In this document: piece after piece, positions 22,302-32,269 of the stretch | Layout of the letters: every line of letters starts with the position of its first letter | How positions within the stretch are numbered: position 1 is the first letter of the stretch | Assembly (NCBI GenBank): GCA_047602425.1 | Contig: JASGHG010000001.1 | Coordinates: forward strand, 1,184,001 to 1,248,000 | Source: Nibricoccus sp. | GTDB lineage: Bacteria > Verrucomicrobiota > Verrucomicrobiia > Opitutales > Opitutaceae | Direction: 5' to 3' | Length of the DNA: 64,000 nucleotides | Program-made: the position numbers and the translations under genes | Notes under the pieces: generated by a model | Told to the model about the DNA's origin: nothing | Seen by the model: the letters and a program-made list of their open reading frames with translations, nothing else | Database searches by the model: none

Positions 22302-24440
22302 TCACATCTCGCGTTTTACACCGGCGGGCCCTGCGCGATAAATGGAAAGCGTGCTGGCAGGTTCGACTTTAACCTTCTGGCCGCGACAAACGATCTCGCC
22401 CGAAACGGTTTCGCCTGGGTTTACCGGCATGACGGCGAGCAGCATATCGCCATTCTCGGCCGGAATCGCCGAAACATAGGCGCCAGCCAATCCCGTGACC
22501 GGCGAGGGCAAATCGAGTCGCGCAATGGCGGCGGTAAGACCGGCTGCGTCCGCCTCGATTTTGAACGAAACTGGCAGACCCAGGGAGACACGGTGGCCGT
22601 CCACCGTGAGTGCCGGAGCTTCGTCAATCACATGAACCGGAAATTTTGCCGCCACGAGTTTTTGCAACACGGCAAATTCCTTCGCCGTGACCACCCGGGC
22701 GCAAGGAAGAACCACGGCTTTGTAAGTTTGTTTACCCAGCCGCAACACGCCGTTTTCCAACACGGCATCGCCAAGCCAGTTATCGGAAATCATATCCACT
22801 TGCACGCCCGCCGCAGGCATCGCACCCGTGAGGCGATTGACTTTGCTCATGATATCGTCGTTTTCGGGCTCGCGGCCAATCATCATGGTTGCGAGTGGAC
22901 AAACCACCGCAACTTCGGCGACGGGCAGTCTGTAGCCTGTGATGGCATGCACGCGGCGCGTTTTCTCGATCAGCTTCGGCAACAATGGCCATGTTGGGTG
23001 GTTCGGGAAACCAGGTCCAAAATCGCGCCCAGCCCCAATGCCTTTCGTGATGCCGTAGGAATGTTGAATCCACTCGTTGGAAAAAAGCGCCATGAGATCA
23101 TTCCAATAAATGGGCGCAGACTCTTCGTATTTCACGCCCCATTGATTGAAATAAGCGTGTCCGGTTTTTGAATACCGGCCCAGGCTCGTTGCCAGGATCA
23201 TGAAGGATACGTCCTCGTATTTGTCGGCCAGACTGGCTTTGAAATATTTTTCGAAGCTGCCCGCGTCGGTATAACCGGAATCGAGCGCGGAGAGCCCGCG
23301 CCAGTAATCGGCTGAACCGTGATACATATTGTCGGGAATGGTGTGCCAGTTTTGGTGAATCCCCATTCGCAAGGGTCCAAAGCGCTTCTCGCCTTCCTTC
23401 CACATCCGTTCCTCCGCACCAAAAACATAATCCATCACCAGCTGAAAGTAGTCGTTGCGCACGCGCATCTGGCTTTCGTCGTCGAGAGAAAGAAGCAGCG
23501 CGTAAAGTTTCGCCTTCAGGTCATAACCATACTTCGCCTGGAAATCCCGGTAGATGCGTTCGCTGATCGCGTAGTGGCCAAATTGGAGATAGTAACCTGG
23601 TTCGTCCCACCAAAAGCCGTTGAAGCGAATGCCTTCGGCTTTGTAACGATCGAGTAGTTTTATCATTTCGGCCTCATGCGCCGGCGCATCGAATGCGTAC
23701 AAATTTGTGCTGAACCGTGGAAACGCCACGACCCACCATTCACCCGGAGGCAGATCGGGCTTCCCGAACACTTCCACATAGTAAAGACTGCGATTGATAA
23801 AGAAATGATGCTGCGCGGTGATGTCGCGAATCGACGACGTGATCACGCGGCCGTCCTTGCGCTGGTAAGCGAAGACTTTGTCCACACCCACGGGATTCAG
23901 CCAGAGTCCGACTTCGGTCAGCATGTGCACGTCGCGTTTCGAAGGATAATTATAGCGAAGAGTAAAACGCCCGCCTTCCACCTTGCATTCGTTGAGCAAT
24001 GCGCGATCGGCGGGCAGAGTGTTTCCCGGCGCAGGAGATTTCCCCATAAAATCCTGACCGGTGAGCAAAATTTCCGCACCAAAACCTGTTTTCCCAATGA
24101 TGTGGTGTGCGCCGAAACGCGGATCAGGGCCCCAAATGAATTCGATCCCTTCACGCTTGCAGGCTTCGCTCGCGAGTTTCACGGCTGCAATCATCTCGTC
24201 GTCGAAAATCTGGTAGCGCGTCGCCCGCGGCATAACAAAGAGCCCGTCAAAACCAGCGGCTTTCAGATCGGCGAGTTGTTTCAACAAAACCTCCGGATTC
24301 TCGATGGCCTCGTCCTGCCACGTCCAAAACATCGTGGCGAACGGACCAGGTTTTTTTTCAGCGGCGGTCAGCGAAATTCCGCAACTAATAAAAACAACTA
24401 ACACAAAAACACGCAAGGAACGAAAGGTGGAAAGCGGCAT
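22302..24440 (-). CDS. Exported putative glycoside hydrolase (GH106-like TIM barrel, uncertain)
   Basis: Signal peptide, FWTW...QLADLKAAGFDG, GFWWDEP, F..KYGYDL, and a C-terminal GATase-like segment (YKAVVLP). Family assignment by recall only. Confidence 0.5.
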   Translation of the reverse strand: MPLSTFRSLRVFVLVVFISCGISLTAAEKKPGPFATMFWTWQDEAIENPEVLLKQLADLKAAGFDGLFVMPRATRYQIFDDEMIAAVKLASEACKREGIEFIWGPDPRFGAHHIIGKTGFGAEILLTGQDFMGKSPAPGNTLPADRALLNECKVEGGRFTLRYNYPSKRDVHMLTEVGLWLNPVGVDKVFAYQRKDGRVITSSIRDITAQHHFFINRSLYYVEVFGKPDLPPGEWWVVAFPRFSTNLYAFDAPAHEAEMIKLLDRYKAEGIRFNGFWWDEPGYYLQFGHYAISERIYRDFQAKYGYDLKAKLYALLLSLDDESQMRVRNDYFQLVMDYVFGAEERMWKEGEKRFGPLRMGIHQNWHTIPDNMYHGSADYWRGLSALDSGYTDAGSFEKYFKASLADKYEDVSFMILATSLGRYSKTGHAYFNQWGVKYEESAPIYWNDLMALFSNEWIQHSYGITKGIGAGRDFGPGFPNHPTWPLLPKLIEKTRRVHAITGYRLPVAEVAVVCPLATMMIGREPENDDIMSKVNRLTGAMPAAGVQVDMISDNWLGDAVLENGVLRLGKQTYKAVVLPCARVVTAKEFAVLQKLVAAKFPVHVIDEAPALTVDGHRVSLGLPVSFKIEADAAGLTAAIARLDLPSPVTGLAGAYVSAIPAENGDMLLAVMPVNPGETVSGEIVCRGQKVKVEPASTLSIYRAGPAGVKREM

Positions 24441-24555: not shown

Positions 24556-26013
24556 TCACATTGAAGCCAGCAGCTTGCGCAGCGTTTCGTCGACGAGCTT
24601 GGGGTTAGCCTTGCCTTTCGCGGCTTTCATGATCGGACCCTTGAACGCATTGATCGCGCTGTCTTTGCCGGATTTAAACTCGGCAAGCGCCTTGGCGTTG
24701 GCCGCGATGGAGTCGCGACACCATTGTTCAAGTTCGCCCGAGTCGGTCGGCGCGGCTTTCAGGCCGCGGCGGTCAGCGATGGCTTCAGGCAGGTCGCCCA
24801 TGGCGAACATTTCGACAAAGATTTCCTTCGCGGCGTTGTTCAGCACCGTGCCGGCGTCGATCAGCTTCACGAGAGCAGCGATGTGCGCGGGTTTCACCTT
24901 TGAGTCGACGAGAGAAATTTTCGCCGTGCCGATCTCGCGGAGGAGGTCGTTGACGATCCAATTGCCAGCGGCCTGAGCCTTGCCCGGACCGGAAAGTTTC
25001 GCTGCTTCCTCAAAGAAGTCGCTCAGCTCGCGATCGGGCACGAGGACGGATGAAATCGTGTATGGAATCTGATACTGCTCGAAGAAGCGGCGCTGTTTGT
25101 CGAAAGGCAGTTCGGGACATTCAGCTTTGATGCGTGCTTTCCAAGCATCGTCGACTTTCACCGGCATAAGATCCGGGTCGGGGAAGTAACGGTAATCGTG
25201 CGCCATTTCCTTCGAGCGAAGCGACTGCGAGGCGCCGGTCTGGCCGTCGTAGTCGCGCGTTTCCTGAACGATAATACCGCCGCTTTCCTTTACCGCGATC
25301 TGGCGGGCAATTTCGTGGGCAATACCATCGCGAACAAACGAAATGGAGTTGAGGTTCTTGAGTTCGACTTTGGTTCCGAGCTTTGTTTCGCCAACGGGAC
25401 GAATGGAAATGTTAGCGTCGCAACGCATCTGGCCTTTTTCCATATCGCAGTCGGAAATGCCGCCATAGACCATGGTGTTGCGCAGCGAGGTGAGATACGC
25501 AAACGCTTCCTCCGCGGTATGCATCACGGGCTCGGAGACGATTTCCATCAATGGCGTGCCAGCGCGGTTGTAATCGACGAGCGAATCGACCGCACCATGG
25601 TTGAGCTTGCCGACATCCTCTTCGAGATGGATGCGGGTGAGCGCGATTTTTTTGTGCTCGCCCATCACGTTGCGCGCAGATCCGGGCAGTTCGATCTCAA
25701 CCGATCCATTGAGACAAATCGGTTGGTCGTATTGCGAGATTTGGTAGTTCTTCGGCGAGTCGGGATAGAAATAGTTTTTCCGATCCCATTTGCAAACCGG
25801 TGCGATGTCACAACCAAGCATGAGGCCGGCCTTGATAATCGCGTCGAGCGCGGCCTTGTTCATCACCGGCAGTACGCCGGGAAGCGCAAGCACGACTGGA
25901 TCGGTCAATGTGTTTTCGTCATGACCGTAGCCCGCAGCGACACGCGTGAACATCTTCGACTGCGTCTTTACCTGAACGTGGACTTCAAGACCGATGACGG
26001 CTTCGTATTTCAT
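24556..26013 (-). CDS. gatB: Asp/Glu-tRNA amidotransferase subunit B
   Basis: YEAVIGLEVHVQ, DRKNYFYPD.PK.YQISQ, RIHLEED.GK, DYNRAGTPLMEIVSEP, DYRYFPDPDL. Confidence 0.97.
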   Translation of the reverse strand: MKYEAVIGLEVHVQVKTQSKMFTRVAAGYGHDENTLTDPVVLALPGVLPVMNKAALDAIIKAGLMLGCDIAPVCKWDRKNYFYPDSPKNYQISQYDQPICLNGSVEIELPGSARNVMGEHKKIALTRIHLEEDVGKLNHGAVDSLVDYNRAGTPLMEIVSEPVMHTAEEAFAYLTSLRNTMVYGGISDCDMEKGQMRCDANISIRPVGETKLGTKVELKNLNSISFVRDGIAHEIARQIAVKESGGIIVQETRDYDGQTGASQSLRSKEMAHDYRYFPDPDLMPVKVDDAWKARIKAECPELPFDKQRRFFEQYQIPYTISSVLVPDRELSDFFEEAAKLSGPGKAQAAGNWIVNDLLREIGTAKISLVDSKVKPAHIAALVKLIDAGTVLNNAAKEIFVEMFAMGDLPEAIADRRGLKAAPTDSGELEQWCRDSIAANAKALAEFKSGKDSAINAFKGPIMKAAKGKANPKLVDETLRKLLASM

Positions 26014-26037: not shown

Positions 26038-26077
26038 GCCACAGAGAACACGGAGCTCGGACACAGAGGTCACAGAG
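26038..26077. repeat. Left arm of the inverted repeat enclosing GxxExxY gene 1
   Basis: GCCACAGAGAACACGGAGCTCGGACACAGAGGTCACAGAG. Matches the reverse complement of 26459-26498 at 36 of 40 positions. Confidence 0.92.
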
Positions 26078-26450
26078 CCAAGCGGCGAAGCCCGTGTTTG
26101 GTAAGCAAGGTGGTTCTAAAATTGAAGAGTAGACCGATGCGGCAGGAGGAAAACCGCAGGTAGGTTAGGACTTGGGCTTCATGCACGCCGAGGAGTTCGT
26201 CGATGGCCTTGAGCTCAACTACGACCTTGCCACCCACCAAAAAATCGAGCCGATAGGCATCCTCGATCAACAAGTCTTTATAGCGCACAGAGCAGAGTTT
26301 CTGCTCTTCAAAGGCAATATGGCGGAGAGATAATTCGTGCGCCAGAGCACGTTGGTAAGCGGACTCTAAAAGCACTGGGCCAAGGTCCCGATGGACCTCA
26401 ATTGCCGCACCAATGACTTGCTCAGTCAGCTGATTGATTTCGGCGTCCAT
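26070..26450 (-). CDS. GxxExxY protein (PD-(D/E)XK nuclease-like, PDDEXK_3), copy 1
   Basis: IGAAIEVHRDLGPVLLESAY, YRLDFLV...VVELKA, HEAQVLTYL, GLLFNF. Confidence 0.92.
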   Translation of the reverse strand: MDAEINQLTEQVIGAAIEVHRDLGPVLLESAYQRALAHELSLRHIAFEEQKLCSVRYKDLLIEDAYRLDFLVGGKVVVELKAIDELLGVHEAQVLTYLRFSSCRIGLLFNFRTTLLTKHGLRRLAL

Positions 26451-26458
26451 GATTTTTT

Positions 26459-26498
26459 CTCCGTGTTCTCTGTGTCCGAGCTCCGTGTCCTCTGTGGC
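26459..26498. repeat. Right arm of the inverted repeat enclosing GxxExxY gene 1
   Basis: CTCCGTGTTCTCTGTGTCCGAGCTCCGTGTCCTCTGTGGC, 5 nt from the gatA stop codon. Confidence 0.92.
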
Positions 26499-26503
26499 AA
26501 GAC

Positions 26504-27970
26504 TCAGAGATTCGGGGTTTTAGTGGCCCAGTCGTGACCTTTTTCGTAGGCGTGGGCGATAGAGAAAAGTTCGGCTTCCTGGAAAGGCTGGCCGATGATT
26601 TGCAGGCCGATCGGCAAGCCGCTCTGCGAGAAACCACAGGGGATGCTGATGCCGGGCAGGCCGGCGAGGTTCACGCCGATCGTGTAGATATCGCTCAGGT
26701 ACATCGCGAGCGGGTTGGCAGCCTTTTCGCCTTTTTTGAACGCGGGTGTCGGCGAGGTCGGCGTGAGAATCGCGTCAACTTCCTTGTAGGCGTTAAGGAA
26801 ATCCTGACGGATCAACGTGCGAACTTTTTGAGCGCGCAGATAATAAGCGTCGTAATAACCGCTCGAGAGTACGTAAGTGCCGAGGATGATACGGCGCTTC
26901 ACTTCGGGGCCAAAACCTTCTGCGCGCGATTTGAAATAGAGATCGACAATGTCTTTCGCGTCTTTCGAGCGATGACCGTAACGGATGCCATCGTAACGCG
27001 CGAGGTTCGAGGAGCATTCGGCCGTGGCAATGATGTAATAAACGCCTACGCCAAACTCGGTGTGCGGCAGAGAAACATTTTTCACTTCGCAGCCCATCTT
27101 CTCGTAATACGCGATCGCTTTTTCCACAGCAGCGGCCACTTCGGGATCGAGACCCTGGCCGAAATATTCCTTTGGAATGCCGAGCTTCCAAGGTCCTTTG
27201 CGCTTCGTTAGTTCTGCACGATAGTTCGGGATTTCTGTTTTGAACGAAGTGGAGTCGAGCGGATCGTGCCCGGCAATCGCGCCAAGCGTGATCGCAGCAT
27301 CTTCGACCGAGCGGCTGAAGGGGCCAATTTGGTCAAGCGACGAGGCAAACGCGATCAGGCCGTAGCGCGAGACGAGGCCGTAGGTGGGCTTCATGCCGAC
27401 GACGTTGCAGAGCGCCGCAGGTTGGCGGATCGAGCCGCCCGTGTCGGAGCCGAGCGTGACAATGGCCTCGCCAGCTGCGACAGCCGCAGCGCTGCCGCCG
27501 GAGCTGCCACCGGGCACACGTTCGAGATCATAGGGATTGCAGGTCGTGTGAAACGCGGAGTTTTCCGTCGAAGAACCCATCGCGAACTCGTCGAGGTTCA
27601 GACGACCCCAGCAAATTGCGCCGGCGTTTTTCAACTTCTTCGTGACAGTCGCATCGTAAGGCGAAACGAAATTCGCGAGCATCTTCGACGATGCCGTCAA
27701 AGGCTGGCCCGTGACAGCGATCACGTCCTTGATGCCGACCGGAATGCCGTCGAGCGGCCCCCTCGCCTGTCCTACGGCGCGACGTTCGTCGGACGCGCGG
27801 GCCTGCGCGAGCGCGTCGCCCTCGTCGAAGGAGTTGAAGGCTTTGACCTTTGAATCAACGGCCTTGGTTCGGGCGATGACGGCCTGCGTGAGGTCGACCG
27901 AAGAAAGTTTCTTCGTCTCCAGCAAGCCGGAGAGCTCGGTGACTGTTTTGTAGAAGAGTTCGGAGGACAT
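26504..27970 (-). CDS. gatA: Asp/Glu-tRNA amidotransferase subunit A
   Basis: Amidase signature GIKD, DEFAMGSSTENS, PGGSSGGSAAAV, GSDTGGSIRQPA, EVKRRIILGT. Start MSSELFY at 27970. Confidence 0.97.
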   Translation of the reverse strand: MSSELFYKTVTELSGLLETKKLSSVDLTQAVIARTKAVDSKVKAFNSFDEGDALAQARASDERRAVGQARGPLDGIPVGIKDVIAVTGQPLTASSKMLANFVSPYDATVTKKLKNAGAICWGRLNLDEFAMGSSTENSAFHTTCNPYDLERVPGGSSGGSAAAVAAGEAIVTLGSDTGGSIRQPAALCNVVGMKPTYGLVSRYGLIAFASSLDQIGPFSRSVEDAAITLGAIAGHDPLDSTSFKTEIPNYRAELTKRKGPWKLGIPKEYFGQGLDPEVAAAVEKAIAYYEKMGCEVKNVSLPHTEFGVGVYYIIATAECSSNLARYDGIRYGHRSKDAKDIVDLYFKSRAEGFGPEVKRRIILGTYVLSSGYYDAYYLRAQKVRTLIRQDFLNAYKEVDAILTPTSPTPAFKKGEKAANPLAMYLSDIYTIGVNLAGLPGISIPCGFSQSGLPIGLQIIGQPFQEAELFSIAHAYEKGHDWATKTPNL

Positions 27971-27978
27971 GTTGTGTC

Positions 27979-28269
27979 TCATTCCACGACTTTCGGGACG
28001 ACGACCATGTTGTTGCGCTGGGCGGGAGCGTTCTTTAGCGCTGCCTCGACCGACAAGCCCGGCTGCGCGACATCGTCTGCCCAAACATTATAAACCGGGA
28101 ACGCGTGCGCGGTCGGCTCCACGCCGCTCACGTCGACTTTTTTGAGCTGTTCGATGTAGGTGAGCACATCGCCGAGTTGCGTGGCAAATTTCGCCTTTTC
28201 CTCGGCAGTCAGCGCGAGCCGGGCCAGGTTGGCGACGTGGTCGATATTGAGGTCAGTCGGGGCAGACAT
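27979..28269 (-). CDS. gatC: Asp/Glu-tRNA amidotransferase subunit C
   Basis: HVANLARL...EQL.KVDVSGVEPTAH...LKNAP...VVPKVVE, directly upstream of gatA. Confidence 0.95.
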   Translation of the reverse strand: MSAPTDLNIDHVANLARLALTAEEKAKFATQLGDVLTYIEQLKKVDVSGVEPTAHAFPVYNVWADDVAQPGLSVEAALKNAPAQRNNMVVVPKVVE

Positions 28270-28273
28270 GTTG

Positions 28274-30733
28274 TTATTTTCGAATTTGGTAAGGCGTAGT
28301 TTTAACCAACTCGTCCTGCAATTTATTGAAGGCGACGCTCACTTCGTCGTCGGTCAACGTGCGGTCGGGCGCGCGAAAAACGAGCGAGAAGGCCAGGCTC
28401 TTTTTGCCGTCGGGCAAACCAGTCCCTTGGTACACGTCGAAAACCTCGACCGTTTCGAGCACAAAGGCCGTGCCGGAAGCAGAGCGCGCAAGCTTCACAA
28501 CGGTTTTCTGCGCCTCGGAAGCGGGCAGGTTCTTGTCGACGACAAGTGCGAGGTCGCGCAGCGCTGCGGGGAATAGACTGAATGGTTGGTAACGACGATG
28601 CGCTTCAACCGAAGCGAGTTTTTCCGGCAGAACGGCAAAAGTACCCGCGTATATCTTGCCCTCAATGCCAAGTGACTTAACCATCGCCAAATCGACAAGA
28701 CCGAAAGCGGCGCCCCAACCGTGGGCCATCTCGCCAGCCACGGCAGACTGCCCTTCCTGCCAGCCGCGGTGAGCGTAGGTGGCCGGTTGCAACGCCTGCC
28801 TGGACAAATCGACGCCACCGGCCATCGCCAAAGCGGCCACCAGACTCTTCGCGGTGTAGAAGTCAGCTGGTTCGCGTTTAAGCCAGCTGCGGTCGCTGGG
28901 ATTTTCAGCAATCACAAATGCCACCGCGACACACTCAAAGTTTGCGCCGTCGCGTTCGACGAAAATGCGGCCGGTTTCGAACAACCGTGAAGCGGAAACG
29001 CCTCGCGACTGGTTGAGTTTGAGGGTTTCGAGAAGGCCCGGGATCAGCGACGAGCGAAGGTGCGACTGGTCTTCAACAAAAGGATTGGCGAGCGCAAGTT
29101 CGGCCACCGCCGTCGACGAAACCCAAGCCTGCAGTTCGCGCTGCGAACGCAATGTGTAGTTCACGCATTCGTGGAAACGCTGGCCAACAAGCTGATCTGC
29201 AACCTTGCGATTGAAAAGCACGATCGGATCGTCCTCGCCAACTAAACCAGGCGATAGAACCACGCTCGCGGGAATTTTTTCAGTGCCGTAGACGCGCAGG
29301 ACTTCCTCGACGAGGTCAATCGGCCGGTCGAGGTCGTCGCGCCAGCTCGGAATCGAAACCGTCATCGCCGGACCGCGCTCGGGCGTCGGCTCCTCGCGGA
29401 CAATCGTAAGTTCGAGCGCTTCAAGCGCGGCGCGGATATCGGCCTCGGGAATCGTGAAGCCGGCCTTTTCACAAATGTAGCCCGGCGTGACCAAGATCTC
29501 GCGTTGCCACGGGACGTCGGCCCCGATGCGCTGCGTTTGTCCGGCGACTTTGCCACCGGCAATTTCCAAGATCAGATCGATCGCACGGTGGGTCGCTTCT
29601 TCGAGCGAATGGGGATCGACGCCACGCTCGTAACGGTAAGACGAATCGGACGAAAGAACTAATTTCCTGGATGTTGCTCGAATTGACTGACGGCGAAAAT
29701 AAGCGCTTTCGAGCACGAGATCCGTCGTTGTTTCGTCGACACCGGAGTTTTCTCCACCCATGACGCCGGCCACAACCAGCGGCTTGGTCGCATCGGCGAT
29801 GACGAGCATGTGATGATTGAGCACGCGCTCCTTGCCATCGAGCGTGACGAGCTTTTCGCCGTCGATTGCGTGGCGCACGATGATCTCGCGGCCGCCAATT
29901 TTTTTGGCATCAAACGCATGGGTCGGCTGACCGTATTCGAGAAGAACGTAATTGCTGATGTCGACGACGTTGTTGATCGGACGCAGGCCGACGGCCTTGA
30001 GTCGCTCCTGCATCCACGACGGACTTGCTCCGATTTTAACGCCAGTGATCACCGTCGCAGTATAAAGCGGGCAGTCGTGACTCGAATCGACGCGGACGGA
30101 TTTCAGCAGATCCTCGCGCGGTGTCGGGTCGGCCGCGGTGGGCGTGAAGGTGACTTCCGGATATTTGAGCTCCAACTTGAACCAAGCGGCGAGTTCGCGC
30201 GCGATGCCGATATGGCTTAGGCAATCGGGCCGGTTCGGTGTGACTTCGATGTCAAACACCACATCGCCCGGAGGCAGTACCGTGTTGATCGGCGTGCCAA
30301 GTGCAGGTTTGCCGTCGAGGATGAGCAAACCAGCCGATTCTTCGGAAATCGTGAGCTCCTTGGCCGAACACATCATGCCATCGGAAAGCTGGCCGCGGAC
30401 CTTGGCCTGCTTGATCGTGAAATTACCAGGTAGCACGGCGCCAGGCAGCGCCACGGGCACGCGGTTGCCGGCGTCGCAGTTGGGTGCGCCGCAGACGATC
30501 GTCTTCACCCCGCCAGCCGAACCAACGTCCACCGTACAGACAGAGAGCTTGTCGGCATTCGGGTGCTTGGCGCGAGTGAGGATTTCGCCAACGACAACGT
30601 CTTTTAGCGCTGGAGCGCCGGTACGGATGACCTGTTCGACCTCGAAACCGAGGAACGTGATCGCGCGACAGATATCGTCGACCGAAGCGTCGAGGCTGAT
30701 GTAAGACTTGAGCCAATTGAGAGAAATTTTCAC
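28274..30733 (-). CDS. pheT: Phenylalanine-tRNA ligase beta subunit
   Basis: SLNWL, HPNADKL, IVCGAPN, TPNRPDCLSHIGIARE, INNVVDISNYV, PSWRDDL, LRSSLIPGLL, FDVYQG. Confidence 0.97.
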   Translation of the reverse strand: MKISLNWLKSYISLDASVDDICRAITFLGFEVEQVIRTGAPALKDVVVGEILTRAKHPNADKLSVCTVDVGSAGGVKTIVCGAPNCDAGNRVPVALPGAVLPGNFTIKQAKVRGQLSDGMMCSAKELTISEESAGLLILDGKPALGTPINTVLPPGDVVFDIEVTPNRPDCLSHIGIARELAAWFKLELKYPEVTFTPTAADPTPREDLLKSVRVDSSHDCPLYTATVITGVKIGASPSWMQERLKAVGLRPINNVVDISNYVLLEYGQPTHAFDAKKIGGREIIVRHAIDGEKLVTLDGKERVLNHHMLVIADATKPLVVAGVMGGENSGVDETTTDLVLESAYFRRQSIRATSRKLVLSSDSSYRYERGVDPHSLEEATHRAIDLILEIAGGKVAGQTQRIGADVPWQREILVTPGYICEKAGFTIPEADIRAALEALELTIVREEPTPERGPAMTVSIPSWRDDLDRPIDLVEEVLRVYGTEKIPASVVLSPGLVGEDDPIVLFNRKVADQLVGQRFHECVNYTLRSQRELQAWVSSTAVAELALANPFVEDQSHLRSSLIPGLLETLKLNQSRGVSASRLFETGRIFVERDGANFECVAVAFVIAENPSDRSWLKREPADFYTAKSLVAALAMAGGVDLSRQALQPATYAHRGWQEGQSAVAGEMAHGWGAAFGLVDLAMVKSLGIEGKIYAGTFAVLPEKLASVEAHRRYQPFSLFPAALRDLALVVDKNLPASEAQKTVVKLARSASGTAFVLETVEVFDVYQGTGLPDGKKSLAFSLVFRAPDRTLTDDEVSVAFNKLQDELVKTTPYQIRK

Positions 30734-30746
30734 GGAAGAATTTTTT

Positions 30747-30773
30747 ACAGAAGATAACGAAGGAAACGAAGCG
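30747..30773. repeat. Left arm of the inverted repeat enclosing GxxExxY gene 2
   Basis: ACAGAAGATAACGAAGGAAACGAAGCG. Matches the reverse complement of 31188-31214 at 26 of 27 positions. Confidence 0.92.
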
Positions 30774-30774
30774 T

Positions 30775-31179
30775 CTAAGGTAGATTTGCGCCAGGAGGGA
30801 TTAAACGAGAGATCCCATTTTTCAGAATGACTTCGTGGAAATTGATCAGAAGCCCGACAGGAATATTTAGCAGTTTCATGTAACTCAGCAGTTGAGCCTT
30901 GTGAATGGGAAGAATGCGTTCAACAGACTTAACTTCGATCAAGAGACAATCGCCGGCCAAAACATCAAAGCGTAGCGGCTCGTCGAACGTTAGCTCTTGA
31001 TAGGTAACTCGGACAAGTTTCTGGCTGACCGCCGAGATTTTTCTCAACGAAAACTCGTGCAGCAAGCAACGCTCGTAGATGGATTCGATCAAGCCGGGGC
31101 CTTTGTCGCGGTGGACCTCTATAGCGGCGCCAATGACCTCATTACTCAAGGCATCAGCTTTTACGTAGAGCGCGTGCAT
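30775..31179 (-). CDS. GxxExxY protein (PD-(D/E)XK nuclease-like, PDDEXK_3), copy 2
   Basis: IGAAIEVHRDKGPGLIESIY, LRFDVL...IEVKS, HKAQLLSYM, GLLINF. Confidence 0.93.
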   Translation of the reverse strand: MHALYVKADALSNEVIGAAIEVHRDKGPGLIESIYERCLLHEFSLRKISAVSQKLVRVTYQELTFDEPLRFDVLAGDCLLIEVKSVERILPIHKAQLLSYMKLLNIPVGLLINFHEVILKNGISRLIPPGANLP

Positions 31180-31187
31180 ACGGGGAT

Positions 31188-31214
31188 CGCTTCGTTTCCT
31201 TCGTTACCTTCTGT
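31188..31214. repeat. Right arm of the inverted repeat enclosing GxxExxY gene 2
   Basis: CGCTTCGTTTCCTTCGTTACCTTCTGT, 11 nt from the pheS stop codon. Confidence 0.92.
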
Positions 31215-31225
31215 TCAATTCCGCT

Positions 31226-32269
31226 TCAGGCGAACTGCTTTAGGAAGCGGACGTCGTTTTGGTAGAAATAGCGGATGTCATCGATGCCGTAGAGGAGCAT
31301 CGCGAGACGCTCTAAGCCCATGCCAAAAGCGTAACCACTCCAGACAGACGAATCGTAGCCGACACCGTCAAACACGGTCGGATCGACCATGCCGCAACCG
31401 CCAATTTCGATCCATTCCTTGTTCACCTTCGGCAGGTGCTTGGCGGAGAGATCGACTTCGAAACTTGGTTCGGTGTAGCCGAAATAGTGCGGACGAAAAC
31501 GCGTCTTGGTGTCCTTGCCGAGCAGTGAGGCAAAGATGTAGTCGAGCAACGCCTTCAAGTCGCGCACGGTGACATTCTTGTCGACGTAGAGGCACTCGAG
31601 TTGGTGGAAGTTGGCCGAGTGTGTGGCGTCAGTCGTGTCGCGACGGTAAACGCGCCCGGGTGAGACGATGCGGATCGGCGGCTTGCCTTTGAGCATGGTG
31701 CGGATCTGGACGGACGACGTATGCGTGCGCAGCAGGTACTTTTCGTTCTGATGCTTTTTCGAAATATTGCCGAACTTGGCGTTATCAGGAAGATAGAAAG
31801 TATCCTGGGCATCGCGGGCCGGATGATCGGCGGGGGTGTTAAGCGCATCGAAACAGTAGTATTCGGTTTCGACCTCTGGGCCCTCGACGACGGAGAAACC
31901 GACTTTACGCAGGATGCGGCACATTTCTTCCCGCACCATTGTGAGTGGATGGTGGGTGCCGAAGGCGAGATCGGGCGACGGCAGCGTCGGATCGATTGCG
32001 GGGCCGAGTTGGGCCTGCAATTCAGCGGCCTCGATCGCGCGAAGCGCAGCATCGAGGAGAGCTTGGAGGTTACCCTTGGTTTCGTTGATCAACTTGCCGA
32101 CGACCGGCTTTTGCTCCTTCGGCACCAAGCCCATCTGTTTCATGAGGGCGGTGAGTTCGCCGTTGGGGCCGACGTAACGGGCTTTAGCAGCCTCGAACTC
32201 GGGGCGGGTTTTCAGCGCGGGGAGTTCCGTTTGAGCCTTGGCCAGAAGGGCGTTGAGTTGGTCTTGCAT
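31226..32269 (-). CDS. pheS: Phenylalanine-tRNA ligase alpha subunit
   Basis: HHPL, HPARDAQDTFY, LRTHTSSVQIR, PGRVYRRD, FHQLE, FRPHYF.YTEPS, AFGMGLERLAML. Confidence 0.97.
   Translation of the reverse strand: MQDQLNALLAKAQTELPALKTRPEFEAAKARYVGPNGELTALMKQMGLVPKEQKPVVGKLINETKGNLQALLDAALRAIEAAELQAQLGPAIDPTLPSPDLAFGTHHPLTMVREEMCRILRKVGFSVVEGPEVETEYYCFDALNTPADHPARDAQDTFYLPDNAKFGNISKKHQNEKYLLRTHTSSVQIRTMLKGKPPIRIVSPGRVYRRDTTDATHSANFHQLECLYVDKNVTVRDLKALLDYIFASLLGKDTKTRFRPHYFGYTEPSFEVDLSAKHLPKVNKEWIEIGGCGMVDPTVFDGVGYDSSVWSGYAFGMGLERLAMLLYGIDDIRYFYQNDVRFLKQFA

Follow-up and report, generated by a model that had tools for sequence, protein, structure and literature searches.

The stretch of DNA considered here is a 64,000-nucleotide (nt) window of the genome of Nibricoccus sp. 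(Opitutaceae), assembly GCA_047602425.1, contig JASGHG010000001.1, positions 1,184,001-1,248,000. On its minus strand lies an operon in which NCBIfam profile matches give the order pheS-pheT-gatC-gatA-gatB. Two junctions of this operon are each occupied by a small gene of the GxxExxY family, enclosed by the arms of an inverted repeat (IR). These units are called here cassette A (gene a, at gatA|gatB) and cassette B (gene b, at pheS|pheT; Table 1).

The arms of cassette A are 40 nt long and complementary at 36/40 positions, those of cassette B are 27 nt long and complementary at 26/27, and the two repeats are the top two IRs between positions 24000 and 33500 of the window. The upstream arm begins 5 nt (A) or 11 nt (B) after the host stop codon and the downstream arm ends 24 nt (A) or 13 nt (B, ahead of pheT) before the next host start, with an A6 run directly after the downstream arm in both cases. 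Three of the five arm mismatches are G-U pairs on the mRNA strand. A sequence-only reading of this DNA had reported the two IR-bracketed genes at these junctions, together with the spacings, A6 runs and G-U mismatches; the former are borne out by profile matches and an IR search, and the latter were all read back from the sequence. Other cassettes have an A run that belongs to the repeat itself, paired with a T run upstream. No target-site duplication is visible at the elements, the intergenic DNA of congeners being too diverged to align. Promoter- and terminator-like sites show no excess over shuffled sequence, and an Rfam scan gave one chance-level match and none that is credible.

Table 1. 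Features of the operon and its two cassettes (window numbering).
Feature	Position	Strand	Basis
pheS, host gene upstream of cassette B	31226..32269	-	TIGR00468
Cassette B upstream arm, purine-rich on mRNA, three phased 9-nt words of ACAGAAG/ACGAAG type	31188..31214	-	IR search
GxxExxY nuclease gene b, 134 amino acids, home junction pheS|pheT	30775..31179	-	TIGR04256, PF13366
Cassette B downstream arm, pyrimidine-rich on mRNA	30747..30773	-	IR search
pheT	28274..30733	-	TIGR00472
gatC, both its junctions empty in the source genome	27979..28269	-	TIGR00135
gatA, host gene upstream of cassette A	26504..27967	-	TIGR00132
Cassette A upstream arm, four phased CACRGAG words	26459..26498	-	IR search
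GxxExxY nuclease gene a, 126 amino acids, home junction gatA|gatB	26070..26450	-	TIGR04256, PF13366
Cassette A downstream arm; it overlaps the final codons of gene a and its stop	26038..26077	-	IR search
gatB	24556..26013	-	TIGR00133

Flanking IRs are general among GxxExxY genes of the family. PF13366 is present in 55 of 61 genomes of the Opitutaceae and in 30 of 61 of the phylum. The family survey covered 150 listed matches of a total of 247 and, with the junction loci added, 156 distinct loci. An IR score of at least 12 was reached at 135 of these 156, and of at least 16 at 103, although at a few the best IR involves a neighbouring element. Since none of 150 random control windows reached a score of 12, the IRs of the window are not chance, and the suspicion that GxxExxY genes elsewhere might lack such repeats can be set aside. 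Similarly, 22 of 31 loci from other families or phyla scored at least 12, and plasmid-record loci with an IR (three of the six examined) include those of Bernardetia, Bacteroides and Sphingomonas. Single-protein queries revealed no phage or viral carriage and matched eight plasmid records. The genes sit alone within housekeeping operons, and 94 of the 106 with both flanks assigned are co-oriented with their neighbours.

The two window proteins are 45% identical and score far above the cut-offs of both TIGR04256 (132 and 126 bits against 35) and PF13366 (132 and 121 bits against 22). The source genome has five GxxExxY genes, the other three encoding proteins 33-38% identical to these two; the paralogues are thus divergent single copies (33-45% identity to the window proteins), not a multi-copy autonomous element with a known transposase. 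In the fifth (G000:C1:4331830-4332221), most of the N-terminal helix is gone and both arms are kept, and this gene is possibly decaying. A structure model (mean predicted local distance difference test score, pLDDT, 95) has as its nearest structures Cas4 (SSO0001; Z 8.0, root-mean-square deviation 4.2, 100 aligned residues), restriction-type nucleases and Hjc (Z 6.7). Residues E29, D69, E79, K81, Q93 and Y97 are kept in at least 90% of 117 alignment rows, one of which, at 16% identity, is possibly out of frame. In these proteins, a catalytic role is presumed for the acidic residues, for the lysine and for the QxxxY motif. The predicted PD-(D/E)XK fold, to which most of the top structural matches belong, and the kept residues support an active nuclease, although they do not identify its substrate. 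A sequence search of the PDB returned only T7 endonuclease I (E 0.97), which is not used as support. Finally, the median ratio of nonsynonymous to synonymous substitution (dN/dS), estimated from 102 unsaturated pairs among 20 full-length genes, is 0.057, which points to strong purifying selection; the open reading frame (ORF) is selected and therefore translated.

Each of the five paralogues lies at a junction of co-oriented genes within a distinct IR of its own, and related arms occur elsewhere in the source genome. Type A comprises 67 arms, in 29 pairs (28 gene-less) and 9 singles; type B comprises 70 arms, in 22 pairs (21 gene-less) and 26 singles. Gene-less doublets of this class number 56; co-oriented genes flank 46 of them and divergent genes 4, as called with a simple predictor of our own, and both numbers differ from background (p ~0.001). 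None of the 41 spacers tested matches GxxExxY DNA, and there is scarcely any resemblance among them. The idea that these spacers are gene remnants was rejected on this ground, yet one internally deleted remnant is known (L027, see below). At 11 junctions with an A doublet, one to four close relatives each were empty or carried another repeat family, and one had a single A-like arm. Because the same doublet was present in no compared relative, the doublets are lineage-specific arrivals. Junctions at which stop and start overlap in the source genome are nearly always unfilled in the relatives too.

Several further observations concern these arms. Genome-wide, lone arms favour the downstream, pyrimidine-rich orientation (43:15). 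In two genomes (the orthologues of G000:C1:632296 in G007 and of 652165 in G003), a start codon is preceded by a series of lone pyrimidine-rich arms from different families, which look as if successive insertions had lost their upstream arms. A tie between the polarity of A-type elements and transcription was considered, but this polarity may merely reflect pyrimidine-rich sense-strand intergenic DNA. In three of four congeners, the empty allele at G000:C1:2130475-2130692 holds 7-8 bases identical to those at the outer end of the A arm; in this one case they may have served as a microhomology target. Other intergenic repeat families are also abundant in the source genome (GTAG-type REP-like, TTGTCAT-type and AGAGTAAC-type). 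In a parallel system, four of its five PF05635 four-helix-bundle genes are framed by inverted short-repeat arrays (G000:C1:624198, 3849092, 4322497, 4405381; L209-L213).

The repeat word follows the protein. On the protein tree, word type requires 25 changes (127 labelled tips) compared with a shuffled minimum of 78, and the upstream host gene requires 61 (130 tips) compared with 98, kinship inflating both tests. The word-type count supports the earlier proposal that each nuclease variant is matched to its own repeat. In clade a, gatA|gatB is the site of 78 of 81 genes (76 by both flanks, 2 by one), a set that partly overlaps the 156 loci; the stop of the gene lies within the downstream arm in 53 of the 81, as in cassette A, and each of 15 genomes has a single clade-a match.

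Gene and arms have also moved together. At 24 sampled loci, forcing the host topology on gene a gave a deltaL of 156 (approximately unbiased test, p 2e-6), compared with 30 and 25 for equal-length pieces of gatA and gatB. A 16-genome nucleotide topology test agrees with this discordance, and the shallow branches of the gene tree agree with the host. A genome of the same genus, with gatAB 92% identical, has a protein a of only 75% identity and different arms, whereas one of another genus, with gatAB 84% identical, has a protein a of 87% identity and the same arm subtype. That subtype, present at 20 of 57 loci, requires 3 changes on the protein tree and 11 on the host tree. These comparisons show that, at the home junction, the gene passes from one lineage to another along with its arms. 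In addition, at least 5 A arms occur in 6 of 14 genomes with clade a and in 5 of 46 without (p 0.014), and at least 5 B arms in 8 of 15 genomes with clade b and in 9 of 45 without (p 0.02). At least 15 B arms occur in 6 of 15 and 6 of 45, respectively (p 0.056); all three tests ignore kinship.

The same junctions in relatives were classified by eye. At gatA|gatB, the best 30 of 60 loci, source genome included, comprise 9 empty alleles (-4 to 29 nt), 9 gene-less doublets of four families, 9 GxxExxY genes, 1 four-helix bundle, 1 deleted remnant and 1 locus without adjacent gatB. At pheS|pheT, the best 30 of 40 loci comprise 9 empty alleles (6-24 nt), 4 doublets, 3 GxxExxY genes, 6 four-helix bundles (5 confirmed as PF05635), 1 other small ORF between arms, 6 unclassified loci and 1 contig end. 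The cassettes are consequently not vertically conserved in all relatives, and the coexistence of empty and filled alleles at orthologous junctions agrees with the earlier impression of a selfish-looking unit. The other small ORF, at L058:1251-1448, encodes 66 amino acids, is hydrophobic and without Pfam match, and lies inside CACAGAG-type arms. The remnant, at gatA|gatB of G052 (L027), is the C-terminal part of a GxxExxY gene of pheS|pheT type with its own arm; full cassettes therefore sometimes land off their home junction and decay. Another GxxExxY gene lies upstream of pheS in G004 (L032:2587-2976) and other relatives have one at gatC|gatA, so that several junctions of the operon are used. 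Two congeners carry a further GxxExxY clade at a different junction (L359:796-1194, L358:2468-2866), and gene-less doublets of that clade's word are found at gatA|gatB of the same two congeners (L002, L003, L005).

With moderate confidence, we favour the hypothesis that the cassettes are semi-domesticated DNA elements, built like RAYT-REPIN systems around a PD-(D/E)XK nuclease, with a master gene and satellite doublets. The comparative steps are those documented above, whereas binding, cutting and mobilisation by the nuclease are what we infer. Each GxxExxY clade consists of a single selected gene, inverted arrays of its own 9-11-nt word and a home junction in a conserved operon, and gene-less doublets of the clade's word, with unique spacers, appear at new, non-overlapping gene junctions in that lineage. 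The nuclease, presumably expressed from the host operon, would recognise the helically phased words and nick or cut at the arms, be they in duplex, cruciform or single-stranded hairpin form. Repair would copy arm pairs to new junctions and homogenise them. The full cassette would rarely jump; essential flanks would limit its deletion and thus let it persist, and conserved flanks would permit allele replacement by homologous recombination.

Several observations weigh against this hypothesis. The strongest objection is that non-enzymatic PF05635 genes, as well as an unrelated small ORF, use the same architecture and junctions: the cargo need not be the mobiliser, and the arms might move by another route. 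The source genome has four Y1 transposase matches (PF01797), located away from the GxxExxY genes. Fold matches are middling: no Z exceeds that for Cas4, and no Foldseek E falls under 0.001. The correlation of upstream arms with the host is at least as close as that with the protein (partial rho 0.37 and 0.28, respectively). Fourfold sites are near saturation, so that no recent transfer was caught and the transfers are old; no co-conversion tract was seen near the junction in five diverged pairs. Finally, the link between gene and arm abundance is loose, and related genomes do not count as independent: 162 B arms occur in G020 and 29 A arms in G080 without a match to clade b or clade a, respectively, whereas G026 carries the gene with no more than 4 arms.

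Another explanation is that doublets are spread by a host or third-party process, be it recombination, template switching or a trans-acting HUH transposase, and that the small genes (GxxExxY, four-helix-bundle and others) are passengers captured between arms, perhaps binding the arms for autoregulation. It would account for several unrelated cargoes of the same design at the same junctions, for large arm families without a detectable cognate gene and for an arm-host correlation that remains after controlling for protein, and Y1 transposases and several other repeat families are present in the source genome. However, word type closely follows protein clade, arm subtype moves with the gene in conflict with the host tree, and the gene is strongly selected, with its catalytic residues intact. 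Moreover, the same mismatch between genes and repeats has been explained for RAYTs by gene loss after proliferation, according to a passage in PMC3686654. On balance, we regard this explanation as rather unlikely.

The sequence-only reading had proposed instead that the arms are kept because they pair in the mRNA, where they would loop out the ORF, or let RNase III excise it, and so restore the proximity of host stop and start. Both window stems are indeed predicted to form (z -7.7 and -3.4), and in these two cassettes they are slightly more stable on the sense strand. The looped-out gaps of 29 nt (gatA|gatB) and 24 nt (pheS|pheT) resemble empty alleles, at the upper end of their range. The co-orientation of genes and gene-less doublets, an RNase III encoded in the source genome and the PF05635 alleles at the same sites would also fit. 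However, selection for pairing in the mRNA predicts more G-U than A-C mismatches on the sense strand, and the ratio G-U:A-C is 47:97 in 103 cassettes (20:48 per element) and 46:102 in 46 gene-less doublets. The ratio becomes 132:45 (elements 42:8, with 6 ties) when read on the G-rich strand, which is the leading one to judge from the orientation of tRNA genes (67:17), from skewed octamers and from the rRNA gene. The residual effect of transcription runs against G-U in the mRNA (p 0.048). As both window cassettes are transcribed on the leading strand, their three G-U pairs out of five are what the replication-strand bias predicts, and G-U bias was rejected as an argument for pairing in the mRNA. 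The same direction is seen in an unrelated repeat family (26:9) but not in REP-like repeats (32:27). Mutation bias and hairpins on the lagging-strand template both fit this replichore asymmetry and are inseparable in these data. As to the replichores themselves, the cumulative GC skew of the source genome turns near 2.2 and 4.65 Mb, and dnaA, at 40 kb, therefore appears to lie far from the origin.

Partner shuffling in the source genome likewise gave no sign of selection on pairing within elements. In the two large arm families, complementarity to the own partner does not exceed that to a shuffled one (A, 28.2 compared with 29.1; B, 21.2 compared with 21.2), although two small arm families lean towards their own partner (p ~0.07). 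The higher within-element score found across species is confounded by the genome-specific variant that the two arms have in common. What is conserved in the arms is the word at fixed positions, as would be expected of protein-binding sites. In addition, most copies have no ORF to loop out, the ORF is translated and its stop lies within the arm (in 53 of the 81 clade-a genes), and lone downstream arms are common. Excision of an intervening sequence (IVS) leaves unligated ends, according to part of PMC4990558, and would thus split the operon mRNA, not join it. It is therefore unlikely that an mRNA intervening sequence is the main logic of the cassettes; pairing in the mRNA would be at most a side effect that softens the cost of insertion.

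A domesticated defence or toxic nuclease comparable to Rpn, or a freestanding homing-type endonuclease, with the repeats as operators or protective sites and the dispersed copies as a by-product, is very unlikely: strong purifying selection, site fidelity with empty alleles and host-tree discordance would suit it, and Rpn proteins are described in parts of PMC5350276 and PMC10400941 as small endonucleases tied to recombination and phage defence, but PADLOC gave no match beyond weak Cas4 hits (E 0.002-0.05), the genes stand alone in housekeeping operons, co-conversion near the junction is lacking in the five pairs, and lineage-specific dispersal of doublets is left unexplained.

Returning to the semi-domesticated element, a literature search, with most subscription papers and supplements outside its scope, found no description of GxxExxY genes with inverted repeats. 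This widespread nuclease-plus-repeat system is a real feature and apparently unpublished. PF13366 is a widespread family of no known function, listed as 'Unknown' in the relevant part of PMC3424549, and the anatomy of the cassettes gives each GxxExxY protein a candidate substrate, its own flanking arms; the source genome alone offers five natural protein-repeat pairs. If the hypothesis is true, the origin of abundant intergenic repeat families would be explained, a second enzyme class would be added to the long-lived 'master gene plus satellite' elements, and very small sequence-specific nucleases with natural specificity variants would be available. A broader and more tentative view, which we put forward without holding it probable, is that GxxExxY proteins are the mobilisers of a large undescribed REPIN-like class with PD-(D/E)XK instead of HUH chemistry, each variant reading its own phased 9-11-nt word, seeding gene-less doublets genome-wide and passing from lineage to lineage at fixed operon junctions. 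Were this so, 23S rRNA IVSs that bear an ORF would represent a particular landing site within a wider family of genes between inverted word arrays.

Among known systems, nucleases of the Cas4/RecB and Hjc types have the folds nearest to the predicted structure and the same catalytic pattern, but the GxxExxY protein is a minimal domain of 126 amino acids without CRISPR context. As for a freestanding homing endonuclease, which would cleave the empty allele with co-conversion of its flanks, site fidelity and host discordance were seen here, and no co-conversion in the five diverged pairs. The GGGAATC repeats of Xanthomonas and the heptamer repeats of Nostoc form intergenic arrays, often as inverted doublets between aligned genes, and share a purine-rich arm just after the stop and a complementary arm before the next start. 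However, they have been interpreted as G-quadruplexes, and the passages of PMC4692102 consulted link no framed gene to them.

The 23S rRNA IVS with an S23p/PF05635 ORF has complementary borders and occurs sporadically at conserved positions (part of PMC4990558). The cassettes share an insert of about 430-490 nt, complementary arms predicted to form a stem and sporadic occurrence at conserved positions, and PF05635 genes occupy the same operon junctions in relatives. The analogy to an IVS that had been drawn from the sequence stands in this last respect and is not supported in its mRNA logic. The cassettes lie between protein genes and have many dispersed gene-less copies; instead of a decaying S23p, they carry a selected nuclease ORF, with no sign of selected RNA pairing. 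The GxxExxY cassette is not an rRNA IVS.

The closest likeness in organisation is to RAYT-REPIN and TIRtron systems. TIRtrons/TIRYTs consist of a gene with long flanking IRs that are also dispersed as singles, dimers and clusters (parts of PMC3733652, where a text search did not find the term 'GxxExxY'); a gene inside long IRs that form a dispersed family is common to both, with a tyrosine transposase there and a nuclease here. REPINs are extragenic inverted doublets of about 100 bp with conserved arms and a variable spacer, and the RAYT is a single-copy gene that does not jump and keeps a fixed extragenic position between cognate repeats, whose abundance is loosely tied to it and whose singlets are remnants (10.1101/2021.07.10.451892, PMC3116915 and PMC3686654, each in part). 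The GxxExxY elements share the many extragenic inverted doublets with conserved arms and unrelated spacers (28 + 21 gene-less), the single-copy gene flanked by cognate repeats at a fixed site, the loose tie between gene and abundance, and the singlets. They differ in having a PF13366 PD-(D/E)XK nuclease instead of an HUH/Y1 tyrosine transposase and, as arms, direct arrays of 9-11-nt phased words instead of short REP palindromes. At one and the same site, their gene tree conflicts with that of the host; the phylogeny of RAYTs, by contrast, is host-congruent according to the parts of these sources consulted. The GxxExxY elements thus work like RAYT-REPIN/TIRtron systems and are not members of them, because the enzyme that defines those systems is not the one found here.

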